Assembly: GCA_043798915.1 (NCBI GenBank)
Contig: JAZDOG010000089.1
Coordinates: forward strand, 57,101-121,100
Length of the DNA: 64,000 nt
Direction of reading: 5' to 3'
From: Pseudomonadota bacterium
Lineage (GTDB): Bacteria; UBA10199; 2-02-FULL-44-16; JAAZCA01
Position 1 is the first letter of the stretch. Each line of letters opens with the position of its first letter. The notes below the pieces were generated by a model. It was not told the DNA's origin. It was given only the letters and a program-made list of their open reading frames with translations, and ran no database searches. Positions 5,344-34,148 of the stretch are shown in pieces. Both the position numbers and the translations under genes were made by a program.

Positions 5344-8300
5344 CTATCGCGCTGGCTGAAAGGTGAAGGAAATATCATCTGAGACCTCGCTCTTTTTCAC
5401 GAGGCCGCGAGGCAGCTTCTTCCTTCTTGCAATTTGGCATAGACGCTCTCCGAATTCTTTTGAATCACCTTCCGTGCCCTCACCAACTTTGCATCCAACA
5501 TCTCCGGAAGGATCGACGGTATATTTAAGGCTCCCCGTGGCCGCGAAGTCGGGATTCCTTTTCAAAAAACGCTCGTAACAATACGAGAACTCCTTCTTCA
5601 GCTCATCCCTAAGACGCTGGAATATAACCGCAGAATCTCCCTTCGACCACTGGCTCAATTTCCCCAGCTCGCCAGTCAGGCGTTTGATTGCCCCCTTGAC
5701 TTCACCTCTTCTGTTTCTGTCAGCTGGTCCTCGCAGCTCCTCCAGCGTGATCTTTCCGTATTCCTCCAGAGCGCTTTTGATATCCCGGATCTTTATATCC
5801 CGAAGGTCGTTCAGGCGCGCCTCTTCCTCGAACGAACGCGCCAGATAATAATGAGCACTGGCTACAAATGAGGGCGCTTTTGCGCGGATAGTCGAAGCAG
5901 TTGCGGAAAAAGACGGGGATTCCATGTCCCTGAAAAACTTCTGATAGGAAGCGGTTGCCTTATCATAGTAACCTACCCCCATAGCAAAATAAAGACGACC
6001 CTGACAGGCAGAGGACTGGATAAAATCAGGATGGAGCCCGCGAAACTCTTCGAGGGCCTTAATCTCCTTTTCTTTGTCGTCGTCTGATTGGCTGGTATAC
6101 GACCAGCCGAGATCCGCTCTGGCAGCGAGGAGTTTGGCCTCGGCTTCCTTTTTTTTGTCTTTCATCTCAAGCTCTGATGCTATCCTGATGATCCCCTCGA
6201 GGGTGGAAATCAATCTCTCTTGCTCCGCGATGGATTTTGACTTCTTCGCATCACTTGAGAATCGTTTAAAGGTCACTTTGGCTTCATCTGTGAATGTTTT
6301 AAGGGCTTTGTCGCGCGCCTCGTCTATCTCTCTGTCACGCTCATTGGCCCATTTTTTCTGCTCGTCGGATGGCTGAAGCCCTCCATATCTAATAACCAGC
6401 CCCTTGGCTGACTTGATGCAATCAATGACACTTTTATAATTGCGCGCATGCACGGCTTTCTTAACTCCATCAAGTGAGGCCCGCACCTCCTCGAGAACCT
6501 CCTTTTTTGCCTTTTCATTTCTCTCTGCCTCGGTCAGCGGGGGTGGAGGTGGTTTTGGCACGACTGGTGCAGGCACAGGCGCCGGCGGTTTGGGCGGAGG
6601 AGGCGGAGCGACATGTGGCAGTTGGGCAACCGGCGCATTTTTAGCAGGAGGTGCAACAGGAACGGTCGGCCTGAGAGCGGGAGTCGCGGCTGCAGGAGGT
6701 GCTGGAGCAACCGAAGGTTTTGTTGGCGGCGGAGCAGGCGGTGCAGCGGGAGCGGTCGGTTTGGGAGAGGGAGTGCCGGCTGCCGGAACCGGTGAACGGG
6801 GTTCGGTTTTGTCCTGAGGGGCAAGCCCAAGCAGCTTTGCTATATTCACATCAACCATCTGCCTCGTCGCCCCCTTCGGACCACTGAATAGATAAATTTT
6901 AGGCTGGTCGGGGACCTCTGCCCCCCCCCTGTTGACGCCCGGCCAGTTCACGCTGTCGACAAACACGAGCGGCACCAGAGGCTTGCCATTCTCCACCTGT
7001 TTGTCCTCAAGCGCGACAAGCCTGCGCCTGAGTTCAGAGGTCTTCTCCTTGCCGGCCCCTTCCGTCGGAGCCACGAACACAATGACGCGCTCGTCTGTAT
7101 TGTAGATTGCGCCGGCCGCCTCGCTGTTGGCAACTTCGACAAAACCCACCGGCTTGTAAGTTTGTGCCTTCCATCTGCCGCCATGCTGGGCGACCTTATA
7201 GATGTGGTATTTGGCTTTTTTGGATTCTATCTCCCTTGGTTCAATGCCGAGTTTTCGCAGAAATCCGCGGCGAAGACTTTGGAGTGTTGCCCCATCATGG
7301 CGCTCAGGCATATGCGGGATGAAGAAATAACGGCGCTTGATTTGCAAGTCCCTGCCCTCGCTGTAGAGACGATAGGTCAAATCGCCCGCCTGCGTATCGG
7401 TCGGATCACCGACGATGACAAACGCATCGCCGGCGCCCGGACCGAAGTGGGCCCCAAAATGACGATAATCGATATAGCAGAAACCATTCTCGTCGGTCGT
7501 CTCGCCGTGCTTCTTTATCAGTTCCTCAACATCGACATCTGGCACTTCGATCGGGGCCTCGATGCCCACAAAGCGGCCGTCCTTGATATCCCCTTCGAAC
7601 TGGATCTTTGCGTATTTCGCAGTGGGCTGCGGCATCAAGATCCCAAGCCTGTTGGCAATCTGTCTCCCCCGCTTGCTTGAAATATCCACGACGGCGATCA
7701 TGCCCCTGTTCCCTGCTTTATCTTTCGTCGGCTCAGTATTATTCACAAGCTTCACAAAATCTTCTTCTCTGAAGAACGCGCCCGTGACAAAAACGGTGAC
7801 GGAGCTTTTCCATTCATTTTTGTAGTTATCAAGCGTGAGTTCGACCACTCCGGGCTTGAAGGCCTGCTCCGGCTTCAGGGCAGGCGCCGTCGGGCCGGCG
7901 GGAGGGAACTCGGCATCTGGGACCTCGGAATGACTCACAAGCGCCTCCCGGATATCGAAGTCCTCACAGTGGCGATTGCCGGCGCTGCCGGTGCAGATTA
8001 AGAATGCCCGGCCGCTTAATTGCACATGGGGCAGATCCGCGAGTTTTCCCTTCAACTTCAATGGCACATAGATCGCCTCGACGTCGAGCTTTCCTCCGAT
8101 GTCCTTTTTATTTATGAGTCTATCGTCCAACTTGGCCATGATCTTCTGGTTCTTGGCTTCCTTGTCCCGGTCCTCCTCCTCTATGACCACCAGAACATTG
8201 CCCGATGACTTTAAGATGTAGCGTTCGAGATCGCCGGCGGATTTGATATCCGTGAACATCACGACCTTGCGCGAAGTCTTCCTGTCCCACAGCTCATTTA

Positions 8301-9921
8301 TCTTCGCCTGTCCCCTGGCAATCATCTCCCCCCAATTTTTCTTATCATCCGCATTCCCGGTCTTCTCATTCAACTTGGCCGCATCGTTGAATGCAGCGAG
8401 GGCCGCATCCTTGTCGCCCTCTTTCCCTGTCCCCTGAAAGACCGCTTTGAGAACAGTGGCCTTCAAGAAATGGGCGTGTGCCTTGACGGACTCCGAATCC
8501 CCTTCCTCGATATGGCCCAGATAAGCCTCAACGAATTTGCGGGCCTGCTCCAGCTCCAGGTTTACCTTGCCGGCATCCTGCGCGGCTTGAATCGCACCAT
8601 CCTCAAAAATCTTCGCCGTCTTGAAATATTTCTCGATCTTCCCATCGATGTCCTTCAGCATCCTGGAGCGGACATCCGAACGTTTTTGCTTCGCAGCCAA
8701 AACCTGCTGGAACTCTTCGTCATTCTGTGTCTGCATGTCTCTGAGTCTATTATAAGCGTCATCAAGGACGGCAAAAACGGTGCTCATCGCATCCAGGTGG
8801 CGGGGATCGATCGCGAGCGCCTTCGCCTTTCTCTCCTGCTCCGCAATCATCTTATCGACCGCACCCAGCTCTTCCTTGAGCTTTTTCGCCGCCGCCTTGT
8901 CTATCTTCGGGGGTTTTGCAGCAGGCGGTTTGGCCGCAGCCGCATCTTTCTGCGGCGTCTCTGGTTTCTGGACAGCGTCGTCCTTGAACTTCCTGGTTCC
9001 GAAACTGGCTTCAAAACTGAATTTGGCCGGACCGGCTTGATCCAGCTTCTCCGCGGTCCTCTCATTAGGAACCCCGCGCGGTGCAAACTTTGAGAGGAGA
9101 ATCGGGTCCTTCTCGACTATGAAACGAGAGGCATCGGGATTATCTATTCTTACCTGATCCAGGTATTTTTTGAGACCCCTGTCGCTCAAGTCGGCTGCGA
9201 TGATCACCACCTTGTTAGCAGATTTGATGCTCTCCTCAATCTCGTCGGGCCCGATCACAGGTATTCCGTACATTTTTTTTGCAGGCTTTGCGGCGGGCGG
9301 CTTTTCTGCGGCTGCCGCCTTGTCCGCCTTCTGAGGAGCCTCGGGCTCCTTGTCAGCATCGTCCCTGAACTTCATGCTTCCGGAAATGAGTTCAAAACTG
9401 AATACGGACGGACCGGCCTGATCCAGCTTGTCCGCGGCCCTCTCCTGCGGAACACCGCGCTGCGCAAGCTTCGAAAGAAGACTCGAATCCTTTTCGACTA
9501 TGAAGAGACAGGCTTCGGAATTGTCTTTTTTTACCTTATCCAGATTTTTTTTGAGGCCCTTGTCGCTCAAATCGGCCGCGACGATCACCACCTTGTCGGC
9601 GGAATCGATGCTCTTTTGAAGCTCGTCGGCCCCGATCACGGGTATTCCGTACAGGTTCTTTATCTTTGTTCTTGCCTTTGTCGGAACCTGGCATGCTCCA
9701 AAGAGTTTGATGATCGAGGGAAGCTGGCTGGCAAACTCGCCCTTTGTGGAAAACGACCTGTTAAACTTTCCATCGCAGGACTCGAATTCAAATTTTCCGC
9801 CCGATTTCGTGTCGTGCTCAAACTTCTCCATCTGCTCCTCGCAATAGGAGCGTTTGTCCTCGTCGGCCGGACTGGAGTAAGTCTTTTTGCAGACATCGAA
9901 GGGGCCGCTTCCACCTGTCAT
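5344..9921 (-). CDS. Large multidomain hypothetical protein with AgmX/PglI-like C-terminal domain
   Basis: Open frame of ~1,525 aa (ATG 9921 follows GGAGG; track starts at 9960); internal ~90-aa duplication, Pro-rich linker, C-terminal CYERFLKRNPDF..G motif. Confidence 0.8.
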   Translation of the reverse strand: MTGGSGPFDVCKKTYSSPADEDKRSYCEEQMEKFEHDTKSGGKFEFESCDGKFNRSFSTKGEFASQLPSIIKLFGACQVPTKARTKIKNLYGIPVIGADELQKSIDSADKVVIVAADLSDKGLKKNLDKVKKDNSEACLFIVEKDSSLLSKLAQRGVPQERAADKLDQAGPSVFSFELISGSMKFRDDADKEPEAPQKADKAAAAEKPPAAKPAKKMYGIPVIGPDEIEESIKSANKVVIIAADLSDRGLKKYLDQVRIDNPDASRFIVEKDPILLSKFAPRGVPNERTAEKLDQAGPAKFSFEASFGTRKFKDDAVQKPETPQKDAAAAKPPAAKPPKIDKAAAKKLKEELGAVDKMIAEQERKAKALAIDPRHLDAMSTVFAVLDDAYNRLRDMQTQNDEEFQQVLAAKQKRSDVRSRMLKDIDGKIEKYFKTAKIFEDGAIQAAQDAGKVNLELEQARKFVEAYLGHIEEGDSESVKAHAHFLKATVLKAVFQGTGKEGDKDAALAAFNDAAKLNEKTGNADDKKNWGEMIARGQAKINELWDRKTSRKVVMFTDIKSAGDLERYILKSSGNVLVVIEEEDRDKEAKNQKIMAKLDDRLINKKDIGGKLDVEAIYVPLKLKGKLADLPHVQLSGRAFLICTGSAGNRHCEDFDIREALVSHSEVPDAEFPPAGPTAPALKPEQAFKPGVVELTLDNYKNEWKSSVTVFVTGAFFREEDFVKLVNNTEPTKDKAGNRGMIAVVDISSKRGRQIANRLGILMPQPTAKYAKIQFEGDIKDGRFVGIEAPIEVPDVDVEELIKKHGETTDENGFCYIDYRHFGAHFGPGAGDAFVIVGDPTDTQAGDLTYRLYSEGRDLQIKRRYFFIPHMPERHDGATLQSLRRGFLRKLGIEPREIESKKAKYHIYKVAQHGGRWKAQTYKPVGFVEVANSEAAGAIYNTDERVIVFVAPTEGAGKEKTSELRRRLVALEDKQVENGKPLVPLVFVDSVNWPGVNRGGAEVPDQPKIYLFSGPKGATRQMVDVNIAKLLGLAPQDKTEPRSPVPAAGTPSPKPTAPAAPPAPPPTKPSVAPAPPAAATPALRPTVPVAPPAKNAPVAQLPHVAPPPPPKPPAPVPAPVVPKPPPPPLTEAERNEKAKKEVLEEVRASLDGVKKAVHARNYKSVIDCIKSAKGLVIRYGGLQPSDEQKKWANERDREIDEARDKALKTFTDEAKVTFKRFSSDAKKSKSIAEQERLISTLEGIIRIASELEMKDKKKEAEAKLLAARADLGWSYTSQSDDDKEKEIKALEEFRGLHPDFIQSSACQGRLYFAMGVGYYDKATASYQKFFRDMESPSFSATASTIRAKAPSFVASAHYYLARSFEEEARLNDLRDIKIRDIKSALEEYGKITLEELRGPADRNRRGEVKGAIKRLTGELGKLSQWSKGDSAVIFQRLRDELKKEFSYCYERFLKRNPDFAATGSLKYTVDPSGDVGCKVGEGTEGDSKEFGERLCQIARRKKLPRGLVKKSEVSDDISFTFQPAR

Positions 9922-9964
9922 GACCTGCTCCTCCAAAAGGGCGTACGGACATCCCCCCACTTTA

Positions 9965-17806: not shown

Positions 17807-18199
17807 TCATTCTCCTTCTATCGATGACAGCTCCATCTCCCTGCCGGCGACGACAGAGACATCGCCTGAGGAGCAGGCCGGACAATCGGGCGGGAGATAG
17901 AGGGCCGGCGCATGCGCGATGTGGTGCGCGAACTCGCAATCGTCAAACCGGCTGTCGGCAAAGCGCTTCCCGCAGGGGGCGCAGGCGAGCTCCACCGGGA
18001 CTTCCTCTATATCGAAGCTCATCCCTTCGAGGGCTGGGGCCTTCTCATATGACGAAAGGCAGAACTCCAGCTGCTCCCTCTGGAAGGCGGCCATCTTCCC
18101 TATCCTGAGTTTTGCGCTCGCCACCTTCGTAAAACCGTTTTCAACCGCCTTTTCGGCTACCGTCTCGATGATCGTCTGTGCAATCGACAGTTCGTGCAT
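17807..18199 (-). CDS. hypA: Hydrogenase nickel metallochaperone HypA
   Basis: MHELSIA start, CxxC..CPAC, GREM. Confidence 0.93.
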   Translation of the reverse strand: MHELSIAQTIIETVAEKAVENGFTKVASAKLRIGKMAAFQREQLEFCLSSYEKAPALEGMSFDIEEVPVELACAPCGKRFADSRFDDCEFAHHIAHAPALYLPPDCPACSSGDVSVVAGREMELSSIEGE

Positions 18200-18200
18200 A

Positions 18201-18686
18201 TCACTCCCCTTTCAACCAACCGCGCTCGTCTAACGTTTTAACAATAGACTCGGCCATCTTCGGTATCGCCTCCGCAACCTTTGGAGTCGGGCTCTCTCCA
18301 AATGAAAATTCGTCCTTCACCTCCATCACGAATATTGCGATCTCGTTCGGGAAAGGGACGCCCATCCTCTTCGCCAGCTCGCATGCCGTGGCGAAGTCGA
18401 TCTGATGGAGCGACGAGAGGCGCGCAGAAGGCTTGAGGGCGGCCGGATCCAGCTCATAGAAATCGCCAGGCGTCCCGCCCTTCGTGTGGATGGCATCTAT
18501 TATCACGGCCCTGTCGTATCCAGAAAGGAGGTCCACGAAGTTAAAACCCCCGACAGAGGCCTCTTTGATCGAGATTCGAGACTTCGACCTCAACAGAGAT
18601 TCAATATCGCGCACAACATAGATGCCGGCGCCGTCGTCGGTCAGGATGGTATTCCCGAGGCCTAGAATTATTGTTTTGGAAGGCAT
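18201..18686 (-). CDS. Hydrogenase maturation protease (HybD/HycI family)
   Basis: LGLGNTILTDDGAG, IIDA, SSLHQ motifs; adjacent to large subunit. Confidence 0.9.
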   Translation of the reverse strand: MPSKTIILGLGNTILTDDGAGIYVVRDIESLLRSKSRISIKEASVGGFNFVDLLSGYDRAVIIDAIHTKGGTPGDFYELDPAALKPSARLSSLHQIDFATACELAKRMGVPFPNEIAIFVMEVKDEFSFGESPTPKVAEAIPKMAESIVKTLDERGWLKGE

Positions 18687-18688
18687 TC

Positions 18689-20149
18689 TCAACGCGTCAA
18701 CTTTTGCACTACATTGCGGTCTGAATCGTAGACCACGACCTCAAGGGGCATCTGGCCGGGGAGCGAGTGCGTGGCGCAGCCGTAGCAGGGGTCGTAGGAG
18801 CGGAACGACATCTCGACCATATTGAGGAGGGCGTCGGTCACGGGCTTTCCGGCCTTGATCACGCCCTGCGCCGCCTTCTTGATCGACATACAGATAGGCG
18901 CATGGTTGTTCGTGGTGCCGACGATGAGATTCGCCTTCGTGACGATGCCGTTCTCGTCGGTCCAGTAGTGGTGCGTGAGCGTCCCGCGCGGGGCCTCGAC
19001 GATGCCGACGCCCTCCGATGGGGTCTTCGTGGGTAGCGCGCGATAGTCGGCGCCCATTATCCCGTCGTCCTTCACGAGCTCCACGAGCCTCTCTGCGGCA
19101 TACATGAGCTCGATCACACGCGCCCAGTGCATCGCCAGGTTGTGCTTCACCGGCTTGCCGCCGAGGGTCTTGTACATCTTGTCATATTCCGCCTGCGCAA
19201 GGGGCGTCGTCATCCCGTCTGCGGCGTTCAGGCGGGCAAGCGGCGTTGCCTGATACACGCCGGAGTCCTTGCCCGAGACAAATCCCTTACAGCCGATCTT
19301 TTTGAGATATGGGAATTTGAGGTACGTCCACGGCTCAACGTGTTCAGCAACATATTCGCGGTAATCATCCGGTGCATACTTACAATGTTCCACACCATCA
19401 GGACCGACCACGCGCACCTTGCCGTCGTAGAAATTCACCTTATTGTTCCCGTCGACGAGCCCCATATAATACGTCGGGAACGTGTATGGATCTGAGAGGA
19501 TGAGGTCCACGTAGGCCTTGTTCTTTAGGACGATGTCCTCGAAGACCTTTAGCGTAAACTTCGCAAACTCCACGCCATCCGTTGCGATCTGTGCGATCCT
19601 TGTGCGCTCCTCTTTGGAAAGCCCCTTGCTCACCCCGCCTGGCAGGGCATTGATCGGATTTACCGGCTTGCCGCCGAGGATGGCTGCGATCTCGTGGCAC
19701 TCTCTGCGCGTCTTTATCACCTTGCCGCCGACCTCGAGGCCGACCTTCTTTATCACGCCGATGATGTTTCTCTCCGCCTTGGGCGCGTCCGGACCGCAGA
19801 CGAAATCAGGGCCGGCGAGCGCGTAGAAGTGCGTCGTATGATCGCCGAGGAAGAACGCGCTGTACTGTAGTTCACGGAGCTTCTTTGCGGTCTCAGGGAT
19901 GTCGATGCCATATACCGCATCGCACGCCTTTGCGGAAGCCATGAGATGCGCCTCGGGGCAGACGCCGCAGATGCGCGAGGTGATGCGCGGCATCTCTTCG
20001 ACCGGGCGCCCCTCCGCAAATTTTTCAAACCCGCGAAGCTCCGGCACCTGAAAGTATGCGTTGGCGACGTCGCCCTTGTCGTCGAGGAATATTTCGATTT
20101 TTCCGTGCCCCTCAAGCCTCGTCACGGGGTCTATGGTGATGCGTTTCAT
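18689..20149 (-). CDS. mvhA: [NiFe]-hydrogenase large subunit, MvhA type (group 3c-like)
   Basis: TRLEGHG, L1 RICGVC, EAPRGTL, L2 DPCYGCATH plus cleavable C-terminal tail. Confidence 0.93.
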   Translation of the reverse strand: MKRITIDPVTRLEGHGKIEIFLDDKGDVANAYFQVPELRGFEKFAEGRPVEEMPRITSRICGVCPEAHLMASAKACDAVYGIDIPETAKKLRELQYSAFFLGDHTTHFYALAGPDFVCGPDAPKAERNIIGVIKKVGLEVGGKVIKTRRECHEIAAILGGKPVNPINALPGGVSKGLSKEERTRIAQIATDGVEFAKFTLKVFEDIVLKNKAYVDLILSDPYTFPTYYMGLVDGNNKVNFYDGKVRVVGPDGVEHCKYAPDDYREYVAEHVEPWTYLKFPYLKKIGCKGFVSGKDSGVYQATPLARLNAADGMTTPLAQAEYDKMYKTLGGKPVKHNLAMHWARVIELMYAAERLVELVKDDGIMGADYRALPTKTPSEGVGIVEAPRGTLTHHYWTDENGIVTKANLIVGTTNNHAPICMSIKKAAQGVIKAGKPVTDALLNMVEMSFRSYDPCYGCATHSLPGQMPLEVVVYDSDRNVVQKLTR

Positions 20150-20154
20150 ATGAA

Positions 20155-21153
20155 TTACACCTTTGCCCTTCCCAGAACAGAATTCGTCACGCCAAACCTG
20201 TAGAACGTCCCGACCGGGTCGACAAGCCCCGCCGCGATTGCCTCGCCGCGCTTCTCGTCGCCTTTGGTGTCGATCAGAGAGCCGATCGCCGAAGCCGCCC
20301 TCGCGCCCTGATCCTCAACACCTTCTGCAGGACCGTAACAGCCGCGGCACGGCATGTTCGCCTTGAGACACTGCGCCTCGCATCCGGAGCGCGTGGCCGA
20401 GCCAACGCATACAAAACCCTGCTCCAGCAAGCACTGCGGCTTGTTCTTGAGCTCCGGCCTGGGAGTCAAGTCAGGCTTGTCCAGGTGAGGCCGCTTGAAG
20501 CGCTCGATGCGGACATCCTTCGTCTTCTTCTCGAACGGGCACTCGTCGCAGACCGACTTGTCGCCCACGCCGACGATAGAGCCCTTCGGCGGGAGTTTTC
20601 CGGAGGCGATCGCCTCTATCACATTCCACGTCTGCTTTGCGGTCGGAGGACATCCGGGGATGAAGTAATCGGCGTCCACGACATCCTTCAGCCTCATCAC
20701 CGAGCTGTAGAATTCAGGTATATGCAGCTCCCCTTCCGGCATCGTCACCTTCTCCTGCGGCAGGATGCCTTTGGGATTGTCGGTCGATTCTGTGGTCTTA
20801 TACGCCCGTTCAAGGATGGAATCCTTCGTGTAGAGGTTCGCAAGTGAAGGAACCCCGCCGAAGCATGAACAGGCGCCGTATGCCGCGAGCACCTTCGATT
20901 TTTTGCGGAGGAGCTCCGCGATCTCTTTCGTCTCGCTGTTTCTCACGCCGCCGTTCCAGAGGCAGACGTCTATGTAGCCATCGGCATATTTGCGGACGTC
21001 GTCATATTTGAAGTCGGCGATGCACGGCCACATCACGATATCCGCGATATCTATCACCTTGAGTATCTTCTCCGCTATCTCAAGCGTGGAGATATCGCAT
21101 CCGCCGCAACCAGCGCCCCAATATACCCCGAGTTTTAATTTTTTATCGGCCAT
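20155..21153 (-). CDS. mvhG: [NiFe]-hydrogenase small subunit, MvhG type
   Basis: CGGC, GACSCFGG, PGCPP, CLLEQGFVC, CRGCYG. Confidence 0.9.
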   Translation of the reverse strand: MADKKLKLGVYWGAGCGGCDISTLEIAEKILKVIDIADIVMWPCIADFKYDDVRKYADGYIDVCLWNGGVRNSETKEIAELLRKKSKVLAAYGACSCFGGVPSLANLYTKDSILERAYKTTESTDNPKGILPQEKVTMPEGELHIPEFYSSVMRLKDVVDADYFIPGCPPTAKQTWNVIEAIASGKLPPKGSIVGVGDKSVCDECPFEKKTKDVRIERFKRPHLDKPDLTPRPELKNKPQCLLEQGFVCVGSATRSGCEAQCLKANMPCRGCYGPAEGVEDQGARAASAIGSLIDTKGDEKRGEAIAAGLVDPVGTFYRFGVTNSVLGRAKV

Positions 21154-21559
21154 CGCCTCTCCAATTGAGAGGTCCCAGCTTCCTGATCTGCTCGGTCATC
21201 TCATTTGTCACCGATGCGACGCGATCGCCCTCGGAAGCTGATATCCATTCAAGGCGAAAGCGCTCTGGCTCGATGCCGAATTGACTGAGCATCTCCTTCA
21301 GGATCGGCATCCGGCCCATCGTCTTGTGATTTCCCTCTATATAATGGCAGTCGCCAGGATGGCACCCCGCCACGAGCACGCCATCGGCCCCGTCCTTGAA
21401 CGCCTTGAGGATGAAGAGCGGATCGACTCGGCCCGAGCACATAACACGGACGATGCGCATGTTCGGCGCGTACTTTATGCGCGCGATGCCGGCAAGGTCA
21501 GCGCCGGTGTATGAGCACCAGTTGCAGAAAATGCCGAGTATTTTGGGTTCAAAAGACAT
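21143..21559 (-). CDS. mvhD: MvhD [2Fe-2S] subunit
   Basis: FCNWCSY, VMCSGRVD, GCHPGDCHY, WISASEG; start MSFEPK at 21559. Confidence 0.93.
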   Translation of the reverse strand: MSFEPKILGIFCNWCSYTGADLAGIARIKYAPNMRIVRVMCSGRVDPLFILKAFKDGADGVLVAGCHPGDCHYIEGNHKTMGRMPILKEMLSQFGIEPERFRLEWISASEGDRVASVTNEMTEQIRKLGPLNWRGDGR

Positions 21560-21573
21560 TTCAGCACTCCGCT

Positions 21574-23361
21574 CTATGCCAACACCCCTTCTATCTCCGC
21601 AAGCACCTGCGAATTCTTGAAGTTTTGCGCCGCTATGACGCCGCACGGACATGCCGCGACGCACGTGCCGCACCCCTTGCAGAGCGCCTCGTTCACGCGC
21701 GAGACCTTCTTATCTTCAATGTAATCTATCGCGTGGTACGGACACATGTCATTGCATATCCTGCAACCTGTGCAATGATCTTCGTCGATGAGTGCAGTGG
21801 CCGCGTCTATCTCGATCTTACCCTTTGCCGCGAGCATCATCGCCTGTGCCGCGGCGCCCGATGCCTGCGCGACCGTGTCCGGGATGTCCTTGGGGCCCTG
21901 GCAGCAACCGGCGATGAAGATTCCGTCGGTCGCCGTGGAGACCGGCGCAAGCTTCGGATGCTTCTCCGCGAAGAAGCCGTCCTTGCTCTGGCAGAGAGTG
22001 AGAAGTCTGGCCACCTCCGGCGCGTCCTTCCCCGCCTCGATGGCCGAGCACAGGACGACCATATCCACCGGCACGCGGCGTATCCGGCGCAAAAGCGTAT
22101 CCTCGCACGTAACGACGAGCTTGCCCTCCTCCTCCGGATAGAGCGCAAAATCGCTGACCGAGGCCGCCTTGCCGCGAATAAAGCGCACATCCTCCTCAAG
22201 CAGGCGATTGTAAAACTCTTCATATCCCTTGCCGAATGAGCGCATGTCGATATAAAAAGCGTATACCTCCGCGCCTGTTTTTTCCTTCACGAGGTGCGCA
22301 AACTTCAGCGCGTACATGCAGCAGACGCGCGAACAATATTCATGATAGTTTTTGTCCCGGCTTCCTATGCAATGAATTATGCCGATCGATTTTGGCTCGG
22401 AACCGTCGGCAAGGACGATCTTGCCATTGGTGGAACCGGCGGCACAGTTCATCCTCTCAAACTCAAGGCTTGTTATGACATTGTCGAACCGCCCGTAGCC
22501 ATACTGCATTGTCTTGCGCGGATCAAAGAGTTGAAAACCGGTGGCGGCGATTATGGACCCGACCTCCACCTCCCGGGTTGTGTCCTTCATCTCGTGATCG
22601 ATAGCCTCGGTGGGACATATTTTCGCGCAGATCTTGCACTTCCCGTTTCTGAAGTAGATGCACGACTGCGTGTCGATGACCGGCTTGTTGGGGACAGCCT
22701 GCATCGTGGGCACATAGATCGCGGTGTTAGGGCCAAGGGTGATGTCGCCGTGCACGATCTTGTCTTCCATCGTCCCCGTCACACGGATATGGCCCGTAGG
22801 GCAGACCTTCGCGCAGGAGCCGCACCCGATGCACCTGTCGGAATCCACTTCAAAAGGCGTAGTGACGCTTCGCTCGATCCCCCGTCCCGCGAACGCGATG
22901 GCCTTGGCGCCGACCACCTCATTGCAGACACGGACGCAAAGGCCGCAGAGAATGCACCCCTCTTCGCCTTTGCCGAAACGAGATTCATCAATGCCGAGTT
23001 CAGAAGCGAGCTCGCGCAGCACTTTTACCTTTGAACAGCGCGCAAGGAAAAACTCCACCAGGAGCTTTCGAATGGACCTTATCCGCTCGTTGTATGTGAC
23101 AACCTCAAGCCCTTCCTCGACGGGATAATTGCAGGCGGTCACATAACGGACCCGTTTCCCGCGACGGACCTCAACGGTGCATATCCGGCATGCCGCATAA
23201 GGCTGCACGTGTCTGTAGTAGCAAAGGGTCGGGATCTTTATCCCCAGTTTCTCCGCCGCGGCGAGTATGTACGAACCCTTCGCGACCTCAACCTCCCTGC
23301 CGTCGACGACGAGTTTGACCGTTTCCACAGGAGCTTTTGTCTTCACATTATCGTTCGCCAT
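21574..23361 (-). CDS. hdrA: Fusion of a HydA/NuoG-like N-terminal Fe-S module with the C-terminal part of heterodisulfide reductase subunit A
   Basis: IPTLC..ACRICTV..TAC [2Fe-2S] and 2x CxxCxxCxxxC, then HdrA sequence AIYVP..QAVP, LEFER, HCIGSRD..YCSRVCCMYALK, HPKLAPV, QGPKDI and C-terminal ferredoxin; start MANDNV at 23361. Confidence 0.88.
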   Translation of the reverse strand: MANDNVKTKAPVETVKLVVDGREVEVAKGSYILAAAEKLGIKIPTLCYYRHVQPYAACRICTVEVRRGKRVRYVTACNYPVEEGLEVVTYNERIRSIRKLLVEFFLARCSKVKVLRELASELGIDESRFGKGEEGCILCGLCVRVCNEVVGAKAIAFAGRGIERSVTTPFEVDSDRCIGCGSCAKVCPTGHIRVTGTMEDKIVHGDITLGPNTAIYVPTMQAVPNKPVIDTQSCIYFRNGKCKICAKICPTEAIDHEMKDTTREVEVGSIIAATGFQLFDPRKTMQYGYGRFDNVITSLEFERMNCAAGSTNGKIVLADGSEPKSIGIIHCIGSRDKNYHEYCSRVCCMYALKFAHLVKEKTGAEVYAFYIDMRSFGKGYEEFYNRLLEEDVRFIRGKAASVSDFALYPEEEGKLVVTCEDTLLRRIRRVPVDMVVLCSAIEAGKDAPEVARLLTLCQSKDGFFAEKHPKLAPVSTATDGIFIAGCCQGPKDIPDTVAQASGAAAQAMMLAAKGKIEIDAATALIDEDHCTGCRICNDMCPYHAIDYIEDKKVSRVNEALCKGCGTCVAACPCGVIAAQNFKNSQVLAEIEGVLA

Positions 23362-23369
23362 AGATCCAT

Positions 23370-25352
23370 TCACTCGATGATGACAGCCCCGAACCTGCAC
23401 ACTTCCTGACACGAACCGCATTTGATACAGCGGGGGCCATCAATTATATGAGGTTTCTGTTTTTTACCGCTGATACAGTTCTCAGGGCAGGACCTCACGC
23501 ACAGCGTGCATCCCGTGCACTTCACCTTGTCTATCGAATAACGCACGAGCGCCTTGCAGACGCCGGCAGGACAGCGCTTGTTGAATATGTGCTCCTCATA
23601 TTCGGACCTGAAATAACGAATGGTGGACAGGACCGGATTGGGTGCCGATCCACCCAGGGCGCAAAGCGACGCATCCTGAAGGACCTGCGCGATCTCGACC
23701 AGGGTGTCTATGTCGTCCGCCCTTCCCCCGCCCGCAACGATGCGGTCGAGTATCGCCAGCATGTTGCGTATGCCTTCGCGGCACGGCGCGCATTTTCCGC
23801 ACGACTCATCCTTGAGGAAGTTCAGGAAATAGCGGCCGATGTCGACCATGCACGAAGTGTCATCCATGATGATCATGCCGCCCGAACCCATCATGGACCC
23901 GGCCTCTGTCAGGGTGTCAAAATCGACGGGCAGGTCGATCAGGCTCTCGGGAACGTAGTTCACCGATGGCGGGGCTGTATCGCCCAGATAATCGCGGTGT
24001 TTCCATCCGAACGTGTCCACGATGAGGCAGCCGCCCGAGGGGCCCCCGGTCTGTACCGCTTTGAAGCGGCGTCCTTCGGGAATGCCTTCGCCGAGCTCAT
24101 AGAGTATTTCGCGAAGCGTGATCCCCATCGGGACCTCCAGCAGACCGGTATTCTTCACCTTGCCGACCAGCGAGAACACCTTGGTCCCTTTGGAGCCCTC
24201 GGTCCCGATGGACGAAAACCACTCCGCCCCCCGCGCCATGATGGGGGGGATGTTCGCCCACGTTTCAACATTGTTGAGGTTCGTGGGCCTTCCCCACAGA
24301 CCCGTCTCTGCGGTATGCACATACTTTGCGCGCGGCTCGCCGACCTCGCCCTCTATTGAAGCCATGAGCGCCGTGGACTCGCCGCACACGAACGCCCCAC
24401 CGCCACGATTGATCTTCATGTCAAAATCAAACCCGCTGCCGAATACATCTTTGCCCAGGATCCCGTATTCGCGCGCCTTATCAATCGCCTGCGTGAATTT
24501 GCGAACCGCCTGCGGGTATTCGTGACGCACGTATATGTAGCCCTGATTCGACCCTATGGCATAGGCGCCGATGATCATTCCCTCGATGATGGCATGCGGA
24601 TCCCCTTCGAGGACGCTGCGGTCCATATATGCCCCTGGATCCCCTTCATCGGCGTTGCATATGACATACTTCACGTCTCCGGGGGCATTCTTCACTGTTT
24701 CCCATTTTCGGCCGGCCGGGAAGCCGCCGCCACCGCGGCCGCGAAGGCCCGACTTTTTCACGGCCTCGACCAGCGAATCCGGACTTTTGCGTTCGGACAA
24801 TATCCTGAAGAGCGTGAAGTAACCCCCCATCGCGATGTATTGGTCTATATCATCCGGATCGATGAAGCCGCAGTGTCTCAGGACGATCTTGAACTGCTTT
24901 GAATAGAACGGAACATCGCTCAACAGGCGTATCCCGGATATTTCCGGAGGGAGCTTGCCCGAAGAATAGCTGAACACGGATTCATCCAGGAGATTTGTCT
25001 CATTCAAAATCTTTCCAAGGGCCCATTCCGGTTTGTGCGCGCCCCCGGCAAGGGATGCAACGAGTTCGCGCGCTTTGGCAGGCGTCATTTCACTGTAGAA
25101 TATCCGAGGGAAACCCGGCATCCAGACGTCGAGGATAGGTTCTTCCTGACAGAAACCTATGCAACCGGCCTCGGCAACTATCGCGTCCAGCTTCCGCTTC
25201 TCCACTTCTTCCCTCACGGCCTTCAAGACCTCGCCCGAACCTGTCGCCAGACCGCACGTGGCCGTTCCGACCGTGATCTTGATCCTCCCGGGATGGAGCT
25301 TCGCCTCTCCCCGTTTTTTTATCTCCTGAAAGTCCCGCAAAGTTCTGATCAT
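23370..25352 (-). CDS. HydB/NuoF-like FMN/NAD(H)-binding subunit
   Basis: N-terminal thioredoxin-like FeS domain, SGLRGRGGGGFP, CNADEGDPGAYMDR, GGPSGG, ESCGKCAPCR, EEH..CPAGVC, C-terminal 2x[4Fe-4S]; start MIRTLR at 25352. Confidence 0.92.
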   Translation of the reverse strand: MIRTLRDFQEIKKRGEAKLHPGRIKITVGTATCGLATGSGEVLKAVREEVEKRKLDAIVAEAGCIGFCQEEPILDVWMPGFPRIFYSEMTPAKARELVASLAGGAHKPEWALGKILNETNLLDESVFSYSSGKLPPEISGIRLLSDVPFYSKQFKIVLRHCGFIDPDDIDQYIAMGGYFTLFRILSERKSPDSLVEAVKKSGLRGRGGGGFPAGRKWETVKNAPGDVKYVICNADEGDPGAYMDRSVLEGDPHAIIEGMIIGAYAIGSNQGYIYVRHEYPQAVRKFTQAIDKAREYGILGKDVFGSGFDFDMKINRGGGAFVCGESTALMASIEGEVGEPRAKYVHTAETGLWGRPTNLNNVETWANIPPIMARGAEWFSSIGTEGSKGTKVFSLVGKVKNTGLLEVPMGITLREILYELGEGIPEGRRFKAVQTGGPSGGCLIVDTFGWKHRDYLGDTAPPSVNYVPESLIDLPVDFDTLTEAGSMMGSGGMIIMDDTSCMVDIGRYFLNFLKDESCGKCAPCREGIRNMLAILDRIVAGGGRADDIDTLVEIAQVLQDASLCALGGSAPNPVLSTIRYFRSEYEEHIFNKRCPAGVCKALVRYSIDKVKCTGCTLCVRSCPENCISGKKQKPHIIDGPRCIKCGSCQEVCRFGAVIIE

Positions 25353-25828
25353 AACGCCTTTTCCTTCGCCGCAGTTGTCTTCTGCGGCCGGACAAGCCTC
25401 ACAGCCTTGTCCTGATTGAGCCTGCCATGGACGTTCTCGTCCACGATGACGATGGGTGCCAGGCTGCAGGCTCCGACACAGCGCACGGTCTTCAAAGTAT
25501 ATTTGCCATCCAGGGTTGTTCCGCCCTCTTTTATGTGCAGTTCCCTCTCCATCCTGCTCACGATCCTGTCTGCGCCTTTGACATGACAGGCCGTGCCGCA
25601 ACAGACATGGACCATATGCTCGCCCTGCGGAGTCAGGCTGAAAGCCTTATAAAAGGTCGCAACCGCATAAATCTGTGTCAACGGAATATCCATTTTGTCC
25701 GCCAGATAGCGGAGGGCCTCCTGAGGCAGGTGTCTGTAGGTATCCTGAATATCTTGCATCATCATTATGAGCGATTCCCGATCCGCGTTGTATTTGTCAA
25801 TAATCGCCGCCGTTTTTTCCTGTATCAT
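25349..25828 (-). CDS. HydC/NuoE-like [2Fe-2S] subunit
   Basis: VATFY, C.GTAC, CVGACSLAP. Confidence 0.93.
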   Translation of the reverse strand: MIQEKTAAIIDKYNADRESLIMMMQDIQDTYRHLPQEALRYLADKMDIPLTQIYAVATFYKAFSLTPQGEHMVHVCCGTACHVKGADRIVSRMERELHIKEGGTTLDGKYTLKTVRCVGACSLAPIVIVDENVHGRLNQDKAVRLVRPQKTTAAKEKAL

Positions 25829-25841
25829 AATCGCGTCCTTG

Positions 25842-26669
25842 TCAGTCCCAATGCCTTACCAGGTGGTCTCCGATCCTTATCAATCTCTTTACCGGGATGC
25901 GTCTCGCAGGACACGCATTCCAGCAATCGCCGCAACCTGTGCACTTCCCCTCATCCACATAACGGCTCTTCTTCCTGACTGTGACCTTGAAGTTTCCCAC
26001 GAATCCGTCGACTTTTTCAACCTCGCTATAGGACATGAGCTCTATGTTCTGATGCTGCCCCACCTGCACCATCTTAGGGGTCAATATGCACGCCGCGCAA
26101 TCGAGCGTGGGGAAGGTCTTGTCGAACTGCGCCATATGTCCGCCGATGGAGGGTTCCTTTTCGACCAGATAGACCTTCCGGCCGCTGTCGGCGATGTCCA
26201 GCGCGGCCTGTATGCCGGCGATGCCTCCTCCTATAACCATCACGTGCGGATGGACGGGAACTTCCTTCGCCTGCAACGGCTCAAGCAAAGAGGCCCTTGC
26301 AACTGCGCCGTTGATCAGCGCCTTGGCCTTCTCGGTAGCGAACACGGAGTCATCGGTCACCCATGAACAGTGTTCCCGAACATTCGCCATATGAAACAGG
26401 TATTGGTTGAGACCGGCCGTCTGGCATGCCTTGCGAAAGGTCTTTTCATGCATCAGCGGAGAGCAGGATGCGACCACGACCCGGTCGATCTTGAGCTTCT
26501 CAATATCTTCCTTGATCAGGTTCTGGCCTGGCTCCGAACACATGAACTTGTATTCACGCACAACGGCCACATTTGGCAATGATCGCGCATAATCGCAGAC
26601 CTCGTCGATCGCGACCTTCCCCGCGATGTTCGTGCCACAGTGACATATGTAGACGCCTATCTTGGGCAT
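25842..26669 (-). CDS. hdrA: Heterodisulfide reductase subunit A, N-terminal part
   Basis: [47 protein letters not shown]; ends after first CTGCGDC..CP of the inserted ferredoxin. Confidence 0.92.
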
Positions 26670-26682
26670 GGCACCTGTCCGT

Positions 26683-27570
26683 TCATTTCATATATTTTGC
26701 CAGCACGTCGTTCGCCGACACTATCTCCTGACCTATCCCGAGGTCGGCGGGGCTCAACCCCAACGCCAGGCCTATGAGCTGGGTGAAGTAGAGTATCGGT
26801 ATATCGAACTTCATCTTATATTTTTTGGCCGCACGCTGCTGATAAGCATCTATGTTGAGCTGACACAGAGGACACGGCGTGACAAGTATCTGGGCGCCGC
26901 TTCGGATCGCGCTATGCAACAGGTTCTTTATCAGCCTGAGTCCTATCCATTCCTCCGTCCCCATGAGTGCGCCCCCGCAACAGTTTGCCTTCATGGCAAA
27001 ATCGACCGGGGTCGCACCGCAGACCCTCATCAAACCCTCCATCGTTTCCGGACATTCCGGATCGTCTATCTCATTTTTGGGCCTTACCACCTGACACCCG
27101 TAATAACAGCCGACCTTCAGACCCTCAAGGGGTCTGACAACGAATTGTCTCACTTTTTCGGGCCCGATATCGTGGGCAAAGACGTCCAGCAGGTGGCGGA
27201 CCTTGACAGTGCCCTTGTAGCTGAGGCCTCCCTCCGACAAGGCCGCATTGACCTTCTGACGCACCTGCGGGAACTCCTTCAGGTAGTTGTTCGTCTTGTT
27301 GAGTCCCACATAACATCCGCTGCAAGGTGCGACGATCTCTCCACTTTTTTGTTCCGCAAGCGCCAGATTCCTGGCCGAGATGGCGAAGGCAGTGAGCTCC
27401 TTGATGCCCATGTATGCGGTGGCGCCGCAGCAATTCCAGTCCTCAAGTTCCACGAGCTTTGCGCCAAGTGCGGCGGAAACCACGCGCGAAGACGCATCAT
27501 AAGCTTTCGACGAGGAATGCAGCGAACAGCCGGGATAATAGAGATATTCTTTCCAGTAGGTCTCAGCCAT
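26683..27570 (-). CDS. hdrB: Heterodisulfide reductase subunit B
   Basis: YYPGCS, two CCG motifs, [13 protein letters not shown]. Confidence 0.94.
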
Positions 27571-27581: not shown

Positions 27582-28154
27582 TTAAGACATCGATTCCGCT
27601 TTCATCACTATCGCACGAAATTGTTTGCGACCTTTTATCTTATGCGCTGTCAGCGGGAGTCTCCCTTTAAGCCAAAGTCTGAGCCCGATCGTCATGTTCT
27701 TGAGGAGCGCGAACGGGTTCGTCTTCAAAAAGAAACGGAGCAAAAGCTCCATTTCGTTATTGCGGCCATATCGATTGACCACCTTCATAAAGGATTTCGC
27801 CAGATGGAATCCGCGCCATTGCAGGGAAAACCGCTCCTTGCTTGAAAGGCGTTTGAGCGCATACATGATATCGGTGACCTTGATGTTTTTCGGACAGCGG
27901 ACATAACAGAAATAACAGGAGGTACAGAGCCAGATATCCGGGCTTTTGAGGACCTCCTCGCGAAGACCCGCGCGGATTTTATAGAACAGGTTGCGCGGGC
28001 TGTCCTCCATGAGATATGAGGTGGGACAGGAACCGGAGCAGGTGCCGCATTGAATGCAATCGACGATCTTCTCTCCGCCCGGGATAGCGCGCACCTCTTC
28101 CAGAAAACTCAGATCCATCTCGCTTTCGCGCTGTATGTCGCGCTTCTCGGCCAT
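27582..28154 (-). CDS. hdrC: Heterodisulfide reductase subunit C
   Basis: CIQCGTCSGSCP and WLCTSCYFCYVRCP. Confidence 0.93.
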   Translation of the reverse strand: MAEKRDIQRESEMDLSFLEEVRAIPGGEKIVDCIQCGTCSGSCPTSYLMEDSPRNLFYKIRAGLREEVLKSPDIWLCTSCYFCYVRCPKNIKVTDIMYALKRLSSKERFSLQWRGFHLAKSFMKVVNRYGRNNEMELLLRFFLKTNPFALLKNMTIGLRLWLKGRLPLTAHKIKGRKQFRAIVMKAESMS

Positions 28155-28272: not shown

Positions 28273-29655
28273 CTACATCAGTCCCAGTTCCTTCATCTTG
28301 CCATAGAGCGTCGTGCGGCCCAAATCGAGACTCCTCGCGGCCTTGCTTTTGTCGCCGTTGCATATCCGCAGGGCGTGCTCGATATACTGCCGCTCGGCAC
28401 GGGCGACGTAGTCCTTGAGGGCGCCGACCGTCGCATCGGCCGTGGGGAGGCCCACCGGCGCGGCCGCGCCGGTCCTGCAGCCGTTGAGCGCCCATGACGG
28501 GAAGATCGATTCGTCGATACGGTCGCCAGGCGCCAGGATGGACAAGCTCTGGACGATGTTCGCCAGCTCCCTCACATTCCCCGGCCAATGATAGGCCATG
28601 AGCCGCCCCATGGCCGCGGGTGTGAAGCTCTTCACCGCGCCATCCTTCGCAAACCGCGCGAGGAAATGATCGATGAGCGGCGGGATGTCCTCCACGCGCT
28701 CGCGCAGCGGAGGCATCGAGAACTGTATGACGCGCAGCCGGTGGTAGAGGTCCATGCGGAATTCGCCGCGGCTGACCTTCTCCTCGAGCAATTCATTGGT
28801 CGCCGCAATCACGCGGAAGTCGGCCTTGATGAGTTCGTTGCCGCCCACGCGGCAGAACTCTCGCTCCTGCAATACACGCAGGATCTTCGCCTGCATGTCG
28901 GCCTTGAGGGCGCCCACCTCGTCCAAGAAAATGTCGCCTCCGTCGGCGAGCTCAAACTTGCCGAGCCTGCGCTTTATGGCGCCGGTGTAGGCGCCAGCCT
29001 CGGCGCCGAAGAGCTCCGCCTCGATCAGGTTGTCGGGGATGGCCGCGCAGTTGACTGCGATGAAAGGTCTGCGGGCATCGCCCTCGATGCGGTGTATGTG
29101 GCGGGCCAGGAGTTCCTTGCCGGTGCCGGTCTCCCCGACGATCAGGACGTTTGCCCCGTGGCCTTTGAGCTGCTCCGTCTGGGAGAGGATGCCGCTCACC
29201 GCGGCGCTCCTGTGTATTATGCCGGGACAGCAACTTCCGGTGTTTTGGGCCTCGACGAGGGCGTCGTACCGCTCGCGCACGCGGCGCGCAGCCGCCTGCC
29301 TCTCGGCTATCGCCTGAAGCTCCTCCATGTCGAAGGGCTTGGTGAGATAATCGATCGCACCGGCGCGTATGGCCTCGACCACCGTCTTCGGATCGCGTTG
29401 GCCAGACAGGATGACGATGTCCACGGCGGGGTCGACGGATTTTATTCGGCGTATGCCCTCTATTCCATTCTCCCTGCCAAGCCCAATATCCAGAAGGACC
29501 ATATCGATCGAACCGCCCCGCATCAGCGACAATCCCTCCTCTATGGACGGCGCGGTGGAGACGGCAAATATCCCGTGAAGCTGCATGCGCATGCCGATGA
29601 GAAAATCTGGATCGTCGTCGATGCAAAGAACTTTATACGTCATAAGTTCCTCCAT
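28273..29655 (-). CDS. NtrC-family sigma-54 response regulator
   Basis: REC (CIDDD..LLDIGL), GETGTGKE, GAYTGA, Fis HTH. Confidence 0.94.
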   Translation of the reverse strand: MEELMTYKVLCIDDDPDFLIGMRMQLHGIFAVSTAPSIEEGLSLMRGGSIDMVLLDIGLGRENGIEGIRRIKSVDPAVDIVILSGQRDPKTVVEAIRAGAIDYLTKPFDMEELQAIAERQAAARRVRERYDALVEAQNTGSCCPGIIHRSAAVSGILSQTEQLKGHGANVLIVGETGTGKELLARHIHRIEGDARRPFIAVNCAAIPDNLIEAELFGAEAGAYTGAIKRRLGKFELADGGDIFLDEVGALKADMQAKILRVLQEREFCRVGGNELIKADFRVIAATNELLEEKVSRGEFRMDLYHRLRVIQFSMPPLRERVEDIPPLIDHFLARFAKDGAVKSFTPAAMGRLMAYHWPGNVRELANIVQSLSILAPGDRIDESIFPSWALNGCRTGAAAPVGLPTADATVGALKDYVARAERQYIEHALRICNGDKSKAARSLDLGRTTLYGKMKELGLM

Positions 29656-32744: not shown

Positions 32745-34148
32745 ATGAAGACGGCTGATCTCGATATTCTCGTCCAAGAGGGTGAGAGCACGACGCTGGA
32801 GTTCAAAGAGGGGCTGTCGTCGTCGTTCGCGCGCGAGCTGGTTGGGATGGCCAACACGATCGGCGGCAAAGTTTTGCTCGGCGTTCGGGATGATGGCGCG
32901 GTGCTCGGCCTGACGGACTCCAACGCCTTGCGTGCCCGTGTCCAGGATATCGCCCGAAACTGCGATCCGCCAGTGGAGGTAGTGGTCGAACTGGTGGGGC
33001 GGGTGCTGGTGGTGCATGTTCACGAAAGCAATGCCAAACCGGTACAGTGCAGCGACGGCTTCTTCTGGCGGCAAGGGGCTGCTACTCAAAAGCTTTCTCG
33101 GGACGAAGTTAGGAATTTCTTCCACGCCGAGGGTGCGATACATTTCGACTTATCGCCTTGCCCGCGCTTCCGCTATCCGGAGGACTTCGACCGCGAGAAA
33201 TACGCTGCGTGGCTGGAGCTCAGTGGCATCAGCGGACGGCCGAGCACGGAGGATGTGCTGGTCAATATCGAAGCCGCCGAGCGCACGGGTGGAAAACTCT
33301 TGTTCCGCAACGCGGGCGTGCTGTTCTTTGCCAAGAATGTTCGGCACTTTTTTAACCATGCCTACGTCACATGCCTTTTGGCCAAGGGCACCGACAAGGT
33401 TCGTGTGCTGGACCGCAAAGATTTCGACGGTGGCATTGTGGCCGATATACAGGACTCCATGCGTTTCATCGAACGCAACACTCGAACCGCCTGGCGTATC
33501 GAAGGTCTGCGCCGGGAGGACATCCCCGAGTATCCGATGAAAGCCCTGCGCGAAGCTATCACCAATGCGGTCATGCACCGCGATTGGTTCGTTGATGGGG
33601 CCAATGTTTTCGTGGAGATATACACCGATCGGATCGAAATCTCGAGCCCTGGCGGCCTGCCAAAGGGCATGAAGCTTTCCGACCTTGGCCGCAAGAGCAT
33701 CCGACGCAACGCCCTTATCGCCGATTTGCTCCATCGCATAGAGTTCATCGAAAAGGCGGGAACTGGCATAAAGCGGATTCGCGACGAGGCACACGAGCAA
33801 GGCTGCCCCGAGCCGGTTTTCGAGGTGGACGGCTTTTTTACTTCGATATTCCGCCCAAATCCCGAAGTCAGGGCCCAAGCTGGGGTTGTAGCCAAATCAT
33901 CGACCGGGGAAGTCACCGGGGAAGTCACAAGGCTTCTGGCCGTCATGTCCAGCGAGATGAAACGCAAGGAAATCCAAGAGGCTCTGGGGCTTAAGCACGA
34001 GGACCACTTTCGGGAAGCGTATCTTTTGCCGGCTATCAGGGCTGGAGTTGTCGAATTGACAATCCCCGATAGACCCAGAAGCAGCAGGCAACGCTACCGC
34101 CTGACGGCCAAAGGGCGCAGTCTGTTGAGGAAGAAAAACAAGGAGTGA
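32745..34148 (+). CDS. Schlafen/AlbA_2 + HATPase-like + C-terminal winged-HTH protein
   Basis: GESTTLEFKE..MANTIGG..LGVRDDG; REAITNAVMHRD, IEISSPGGLP, RNALIA..IEKAGTG; PRSSRQRYRLT tail. Confidence 0.85.
   Translation: MKTADLDILVQEGESTTLEFKEGLSSSFARELVGMANTIGGKVLLGVRDDGAVLGLTDSNALRARVQDIARNCDPPVEVVVELVGRVLVVHVHESNAKPVQCSDGFFWRQGAATQKLSRDEVRNFFHAEGAIHFDLSPCPRFRYPEDFDREKYAAWLELSGISGRPSTEDVLVNIEAAERTGGKLLFRNAGVLFFAKNVRHFFNHAYVTCLLAKGTDKVRVLDRKDFDGGIVADIQDSMRFIERNTRTAWRIEGLRREDIPEYPMKALREAITNAVMHRDWFVDGANVFVEIYTDRIEISSPGGLPKGMKLSDLGRKSIRRNALIADLLHRIEFIEKAGTGIKRIRDEAHEQGCPEPVFEVDGFFTSIFRPNPEVRAQAGVVAKSSTGEVTGEVTRLLAVMSSEMKRKEIQEALGLKHEDHFREAYLLPAIRAGVVELTIPDRPRSSRQRYRLTAKGRSLLRKKNKE

Follow-up and report, generated by a model that had tools for sequence, protein, structure and literature searches.

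Subunit A of heterodisulfide reductase (HdrA) is a flavin-based bifurcating subunit in which a conserved glutamate (Glu356 in the M. thermolithotrophicus protein) has an assigned role. A 64,000-nucleotide stretch of contig JAZDOG010000089.1 from a Pseudomonadota bacterium (assembly GCA_043798915.1, positions 57,101 to 121,100; ‘the window’ below) encodes HdrA in two pieces, separated by genes of a Bfu-type bifurcating module and with the iron-sulfur subunit of that module, BfuA, fused to the second piece. This split HdrA with its grafted Bfu module is real and conserved, and is to all appearance an undescribed rewiring of two known bifurcating families. The two reading frames lie 2.5 kb apart on the minus strand, where the original prediction, made from the letters of the window, had placed them. 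They belong to a run of 11 tightly packed genes (hdrC, hdrB, hdrA(N), bfuC, bfuB, bfuA::hdrA(C), mvhD, mvhG, mvhA, protease, hypA) that are spaced by -11 to about +14 nt and resemble each other in GC content at third codon positions (0.65-0.78), and these are the only hdrABC genes of the genome. The parts that make up the split HdrA and the inserted module are:

25842..26669, minus strand: hdrA N-half, 275 aa, with the N-terminal Fe-S domain, the initial portion of the FAD domain, the inserted ferredoxin's motif 1 and a conserved tail
25911..25943, minus strand: motif 1 of the inserted ferredoxin (C243, C246, C249, C253), present in 120/120 homologues
25349..25828, minus strand: bfuC (HydC/NuoE-like), 159 aa, [2Fe-2S]
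23370..25352, minus strand: bfuB (HydB/NuoF-like), 660 aa, with the FMN/NAD site, the C501/H588/C594/C599 site and a C-terminal 2x[4Fe-4S] domain
22762..23361, minus strand: BfuA part of the fusion, residues 1-200, with a [2Fe-2S] and two [4Fe-4S] motifs and without the His-ligated A3 cluster
21574..22746, minus strand: HdrA C-half of the fusion, residues 206-595, with motif 2 of the inserted ferredoxin, the remaining FAD domain (E302, K353, C331/343/347/348) and the C-terminal ferredoxin

Aligned to the HdrA2 model and to HdrA of M. thermolithotrophicus (PDB 5ODC, chain A), the two halves are complementary and do not overlap. The N-half matches model positions 1-256 (5ODC residues 4-258), and residues 206-593 of the 595-aa fusion match positions 262-640 (5ODC residues 265-649). 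Fusion residues 15-199 match the N-termini of HydA/HoxU/BfuA (NF040763; PDB 9MQX chain A), in agreement with the prediction of a NuoG/HydA-type N-terminus followed by resumed HdrA sequence. Taken together, the two genes supply all five domains of a type I/A1 HdrA (N-terminal Fe-S, FAD/thioredoxin-reductase, inserted ferredoxin, C-terminal ferredoxin) and retain all cluster cysteines of the 5ODC protein, in two reading frames instead of the single polypeptide of that type. The breakpoint lies within the loop that separates the inserted ferredoxin's two cluster motifs. The N-half had been thought to stop right after motif 1; the break does follow that motif, but a conserved tail of 21 residues comes after it (P259 in 120/120, R262 and I264 each in 118/120, G267 in 117/120), in a set of homologues whose ranking by similarity to the query favors conservation of the tail. 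In the best 120 matches of each half, ranked in this way, all four ferredoxin motifs, the FAD-proximal cluster ligands C331/343/347/348, E302 and K353 are invariant (120/120). By alignment count these ligands correspond to C386/399/403/404 of 5ODC, E302, the second Glu of the LEFER segment, to Glu356, and K353 to Lys409, so the conserved Glu and Lys are retained as claimed; Lys409 is placed at flavin N5 in the accessible published text. An AlphaFold model of the fusion alone (pLDDT 82.7, pTM 0.56, with a low-confidence junction at residues 191-230) and its Foldseek matches confirm the two modules, though not how the motifs pair. We consider it very likely that the two halves assemble into a single functional HdrA to which the module is joined.

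A broken hdrA gene or an assembly chimera without function would be another explanation, and it seems exceedingly improbable. It is largely refuted because the split layout recurs: among the homologues of either half, the top 120 are split in the same manner, the breakpoint is identical in genomes labelled as several phyla, and the cluster ligands are all invariant. For the fusion, every one of the 120 top-ranked homologues is itself a full-length fusion, and their source names include Acidobacteriota, KSB1, Eisenbacteria, Aminicenantes and Dehalococcoidia; those of the N-half are 275-377 aa long. A scan of 79 loci found the fusion in eight. Profile searches, with a cut-off of E 1e-225 set just past the 4.7e-217 of an unsplit relative, found it in at least 20/301 Acidobacteriota, 4/301 Chloroflexota and 1/301 Desulfobacterota genomes, these large searches having scored four candidates per genome, and further in 2/5 genomes of one small phylum and 0/61 of one archaeal phylum. 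Each positive count of these profile searches includes the centre genome, from which the phylum label is taken. In the host's own phylum, 2/93 genomes have the fusion. A plasmid collection yielded one ordinary HdrA only.

We read the surroundings of the fusion in 28 other loci (the eight from the scan and 20 of the 23 matches of one profile search), and these repeat the gene order and the breakpoint, which again argues against an artefact, as do the naturally rejoined single-chain HdrAs of close relatives. hdrA(N) lies upstream in 24 of them, the other four being cut off by the end of a contig; bfuB stands immediately before the fusion in 27/28 and mvhD follows it in 24/28. Downstream of mvhD in those 24 loci come mvhG (19), molybdopterin-enzyme (Fdh-like) genes (2), the contig end (2) or other genes (1). 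An extra cassette sits between hdrA(N) and bfuC in 14/24 loci; in L128 its products are two HATPase proteins, one Fe-hydrogenase-like protein and one PHP protein, and in the other loci it was matched by eye. A cassette of this kind is known from [FeFe]-hydrogenase operons. It hints at the insertion of an entire hyd-type operon into hdrA, in which HdrA(C) would have taken over the position of the H-cluster domain. A literature search for this regulatory cassette returned no description. Two genomes (G343, loci L128/L129; G273, loci L131/L132) each carry a pair of differing split-HdrA operons that face one another at a distance of about 17 kb, one of them without an adjacent mvhD. The BfuA-HdrA junction also occurs in other backgrounds (P0439, P0442, P0450, P0455), including a doubled HdrA of about 1100 aa and an MvhD-fused form. 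In nine Chloroflexota loci (L017, L019, L022, L026, L031, L034, L036, L052, L061) hdrA is apparently split near residue 194. We rejected this as a related break: a TGA stands in frame where the second Cys of a CxxC motif is expected, and it probably encodes selenocysteine. Several of the TGA-type loci have further breaks at Cys positions, which follow residue 64 in mvhD and residue 63 in mvhA.

As predicted, NuoE-like and NuoF-like genes occupy the gap between the hdrA halves (PF01512, PF10589, Fer4 and PF01257 in BfuB/BfuC; an SLBB domain of BfuB scored 26.2 against a cut-off of 27). By their sequence these genes are a HydCBA/Bfu-type bifurcating module rather than a plain NADH dehydrogenase. 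The best solved matches of BfuB are bifurcating HydB/NfnB subunits, ahead of complex I and led by A. mobile NiFe-HydB, and its C501, H588, C594 and C599 correspond to C438, H525, C531 and C536 of that protein (B2/Zn site). Both C-terminal [4Fe-4S] motifs are kept, and the A(F/Y)M and Phe signatures, which are linked to bifurcation, are also present. BfuA has the ligands for the A1 and A2 clusters (C47/58/61/77 and two ferredoxin motifs, 120/120). The accessible text of Schut et al. 2022 (PMC9304861) defines Bfu by such a core and reports that non-bifurcating homologues lack the B2-site His. Of 25 BfuBs taken from split loci, 24 carry the His motif, and strict C-terminal ferredoxin motifs number two in 14, one in six and none in five. 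The earlier label of an NAD(H) module was correct as to an NAD-type module and too modest, because the NuoF-like protein has bifurcating HydB/BfuB hallmarks, and for the same reason the complex probably holds two coupling sites. The claim that the FMN/NAD site is covalently wired to HdrA does not stand: BfuB is a separate polypeptide, and only the BfuA Fe-S wire is fused. The genome has two further bfuCBA-like sets (G000:C57:51348-57489 and G000:C90:13047-17841), one behind por-like genes (Por-Bfu-like) and the other with a 732-aa BfuA; the sets were named only from the N-termini of their reading frames and by tblastn, and the por-like genes from such N-termini. BfuBs of about 1020-1050 aa, with a GltD-like domain in place of the C-terminal ferredoxin, occur in L136 (5844-8912), L139, L142, L143 and L022 (13172-16276), the domain having been identified by Pfam scan in L136 only.

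Because every BfuA motif is still embedded in HydA-type sequence and motif 1 in HdrA sequence, it is simplest to assume that the BfuA ferredoxin is intact and that the HdrA ferredoxin is completed in trans, and we infer that the clusters of the inserted ferredoxin are ligated by two chains. This is supported by P0440, a single chain that contains motif 1, BfuA and motif 2, and by natural single-chain HdrAs in four genomes of the host's phylum and in L008 that join a motif 1 of the N-half type to the ‘LGP’ linker of the fusion (L002:7287-9272, L008:7287-9266, L144:5104-7107, L146:9196-11187, L149:4262-6262). Such hybrid single chains make up 24 of 120 matches, with two distinct junction types; one of them is predicted to adopt the complete HdrA fold (pTM 0.82), disorder being confined to the junction loop 260-278. 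The LGP junction looks derived, since 12 of 21 junction-spanning representatives at 50% identity keep the canonical loop and three have the LGP type (the other six have other junctions). We think it probable that the single-chain LGP HdrAs were rejoined after loss of the module; speaking against a simple rejoining history, the four single chains of the host's phylum have nearly the same junction yet do not form one clade (p-AU 0.04). One origin of all split HdrA C-halves was rejected in a quick tree (LG+G4, 58 chosen rows; p-AU 3e-30). For the LGP-type C-halves alone the one-clade test gave p 0.007, or 0.058 without three Chloroflexota rows, and one origin of the BfuA parts was not rejected (p 0.66); all these trees used LG+G4 on hand-picked rows and have no true root. 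The module has apparently passed from one hdrA background to another. We discarded an origin by recombination within the Cys motif, since the sequence downstream of every motif is that of the motif's own family and the break is located in the loop that follows motif 1.

The remaining genes of the operon are:

27582..28154, minus strand: hdrC, 190 aa, with two [4Fe-4S] motifs and 8 Cys
26683..27570, minus strand: hdrB, 295 aa, with two CCG domains
21143..21559, minus strand: mvhD, [2Fe-2S] adaptor
20155..21153, minus strand: mvhG, hydrogenase small subunit
18689..20149, minus strand: mvhA, [NiFe] large subunit that has the two metal-binding motifs and is extended at its C-terminus
18201..18692, minus strand: hydrogenase maturation protease
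17807..18199, minus strand: hypA

MvhA has both the L1 and L2 motifs and stands with mvhG, mvhD and hdrABC, the gene set of a group 3c Mvh-Hdr hydrogenase. The first residue of its L2 motif is S where the published motif has A, and its best model is VhuA, with a score under the cut-off of that model. A scan for promoters and terminators stayed at chance level (6 versus 5.6 expected; 11 versus 9.4 expected). A sigma-54 response regulator (28273-29655, minus strand) lies 118 nt upstream of hdrC on the same strand and is a possible regulator of the operon. Elsewhere in the window, 5344-9960 (minus strand) holds a 1538-aa reading frame with no Pfam match at E 1e-5, and 32745-34148 (plus strand) a protein with AlbA_2, HATPase_c_4 and Fic-like C-terminal domains.

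We propose that MvhAGD, HdrA(N), BfuA::HdrA(C), HdrBC and BfuBC would form one soluble complex, in which the two HdrA pieces would reassemble one FAD domain and one inserted ferredoxin, with motif 1 from the N-half and motif 2 from the fusion contributing ligands to both of its [4Fe-4S] clusters. Electrons from H2 would enter through MvhAGD and the C-terminal ferredoxin of HdrA. At the FAD, high-potential electrons would go to HdrCB and a putative disulfide or other carrier, and low-potential electrons to the inserted ferredoxin, which would not dock free ferredoxin and would instead pass them along the fused BfuA wire to BfuBC. There the low-potential electrons would be split again, to NAD+ and ferredoxin, so that in sum 4 H2 would reduce two disulfides, one NAD+ and two ferredoxins. 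The accessible texts of two papers (PMC12054007; the preprint on class II benzoyl-CoA reductase, bioRxiv 10.64898/2026.04.10.717634) identify the inserted ferredoxin as the ferredoxin-reducing exit of HdrA, which upholds the claim that the module was inserted into the exit domain; because MvhD and the hydrogenase occupy the input, this points to flow from H2 out to BfuBC. By our calculation the reaction is exergonic by 69-115 kJ per 4 H2 for an acceptor at -260 to -140 mV, with potentials from accessible literature for H2 (-414 mV), NAD (-280 mV) and ferredoxin (-500 mV) and assumed acceptor potentials of -200 and -260 mV. What the sequences show is gene order, complementarity, residue conservation and recurrence; assembly, ligation in trans, direction and coupling are deductions, and we favor the full two-stage mechanism by a narrow measure.

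Several observations weigh against this mechanism. The BfuB position equivalent to C476 is Val, C476 being variable in the Bfu definition, and the N-terminal [2Fe-2S] (B5) domain of BfuB has three Cys only, a pattern also seen in the aligned segment of the bifurcating enzyme 9BOV. The module itself varies: four of the five BfuBs without a C-terminal ferredoxin motif are the long forms of about 1020-1050 aa, in L004 (7024-9764) hdrA(N) is followed directly by the fusion, with no bfuCB in the locus and Fdh-like genes downstream of mvhD, and relatives have a rejoined HdrA, all of which makes two-stage coupling dispensable. The genome has no DsrC and no acetyl-CoA synthase as a lead to the HdrB acceptor; an MTHFR domain is present elsewhere in it. 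No cultured host and no biochemistry appear among the source names of the homologues returned. Finally, HypB, HypD, HypE and HypF, which with HypC are expected for group 3c, did not score above cut-off in this 97% complete genome, so the use of H2 would depend on an unproven maturation route.

The variation among BfuBs bears on a second explanation, that the insert is an NAD(P)H diaphorase only, comparable in function to the GltD insert of type III HdrA, also named HdrL; there would then be one bifurcation, at the FAD, with NAD(P)+ in place of ferredoxin. The same inserted domain does accept a GltD insert in HdrL-like proteins, and some BfuBs of the family lack the ferredoxin domain. The BfuB of the window keeps both C-terminal [4Fe-4S] motifs and the His/Cys site, and at least one such motif is present in 20/25, which makes this explanation unlikely. 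Somewhat more credible, though still improbable, is the same wiring run in reverse, in a fermenting cell where BfuBC would merge electrons of NADH and reduced ferredoxin and pass them through HdrA to the hydrogenase for H2 evolution, either with confurcation of thiol electrons from HdrB or with HdrA as a plain conduit. Bfu modules are reversible and one serves as a confurcating input in class II benzoyl-CoA reductase, according to the accessible text. A genome in which DsrC, acetyl-CoA synthase and Rnf were not found and which has por-like genes beside a second bfuCBA set also fits a fermenter. For full reversal, H2 would have to drop under about 1-100 Pa, a limit that varies with the thiol potential assumed, and a plain conduit leaves K353 at 120/120 and the kept hdrCB unexplained. 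The replacement of mvhAG by Fdh-like genes in two loci is as expected for an interchangeable donor and speaks against the reverse direction.

For the maturation of the hydrogenase, the only HypC domain of the genome is fused to a HydE-like radical-SAM enzyme and lies beside HydG (L156:8249-9541 and 6861-8249; G000:C75), in a genome without HydF and without an [FeFe] catalytic domain. HypD is present in 26/29 other genomes tested. In the host's phylum, 22/93 genomes have a [NiFe] large subunit, 11 with HypD and 11 without; the HypC::HydE fusion occurs in 10/11 of the HypD-lacking genomes versus 0/11 of the HypD-bearing ones, counts in which the relatives are not independent and the HypC part of one genome (G008) was judged from its N-terminus only. 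Further HypC::HydE and HydG loci are L148, L153, L158-L164, L170 and L171, and a distance of about 1.5 kb separates the pair from the mvh operon in both G006 and G007. HypC-HydE with HydG is a candidate for a second route to the Fe(CN)(CO) unit and a way in which MvhA could be active. A literature search on hydrogenases lacking hypD returned no description, and this route could be more novel than the split HdrA itself.

The closest known system is MvhAGD-HdrABC of hydrogenotrophic methanogens (PDB 5ODC, 8RVU, 7BKB), which shares the six subunits, the domain order of HdrA, the cluster ligands, Glu356 and Lys409. In contrast to it, the HdrA described here is divided between two genes, its inserted ferredoxin would be formed by two chains and has BfuA as an extension, the operon includes bfuCB, its host is bacterial, and HdrB would serve a putative disulfide or other carrier. 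Class II benzoyl-CoA reductase (BamBCDEFGHI), as described in the accessible text of the preprint and of PMC9304861, also has HydABC-type and HdrA-type modules in series in one complex and a BfuA with three clusters only, as here. In that enzyme a separate BamI feeds the HdrA input (C-terminal ferredoxin and MvhD-like BamF) and the inserted ferredoxin leads to a tungsten site, whereas here MvhAGD takes the input and BfuA is fused at the inserted ferredoxin. The operon lacks tungsten BamBC genes, has a single HdrA where the Bam enzyme has a doubled one, and does not place Bfu at the input side. The preprint states, in its accessible text, that two distinct modules in one complex were previously unreported. 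The HdrL or type III HdrA of PMC12054007 likewise has an NAD(P)H module that separates the inserted ferredoxin's two motifs, according to the accessible text, which describes the GltD insert and covers archaea only. That insert is a single-chain GltD about 30 residues further on (L058, L072), with FAD instead of FMN and no ferredoxin-binding bifurcating core, and Pfam found no Fer4_20/GltD domain in either HdrA half, unlike in L058. The known Bfu enzymes (NiFe-HydABCSL 7T2R, Wor-Bfu 9MQX, Por-Bfu) share the BfuBC core and a BfuA with the A1, A2 and A4 clusters, and differ in that the ‘third substrate’ partner here is HdrA fused to BfuA.

An Hdr-fused Bfu type is absent from the classification of Schut et al. 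2022 (PMC9304861) and its supplement as far as their text is accessible and searchable, and the split-HdrA/Bfu layout is not described in the accessible text of PMC11237513, PMC5736913, PMC7325909, PMC5861303, PMC6405883, PMC11406978, PMC6085437 and PMC9431491. Literature searches returned no description of an Hdr-Bfu design, with partial coverage of subscription papers that makes its novelty provisional.

Only one characterised enzyme, class II benzoyl-CoA reductase, has two different bifurcating modules, and there they are wired at the input side, opposite to the design found here. By putting the Bfu module at the low-potential exit of HdrA, this design would make it possible to test directly which HdrA domain serves as the exit, whether bifurcations can stack on the output side and what a bacterial HdrABC does without coenzymes M and B, and the split, wire-only and rejoined versions in close relatives are natural controls. 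Standard annotation labels both halves ‘heterodisulfide reductase subunit A’, which hides the class in the genomes of abundant uncultured anaerobes. We suggest only tentatively that this may be a widespread class of enzymes that bifurcate twice in series on the output side, would take H2 and a high-potential acceptor to a reductant well below the ferredoxin range without ATP, and would share clusters between two chains, and that the [NiFe] site in this lineage may be built with HydG and HypC-HydE instead of HypDEF.

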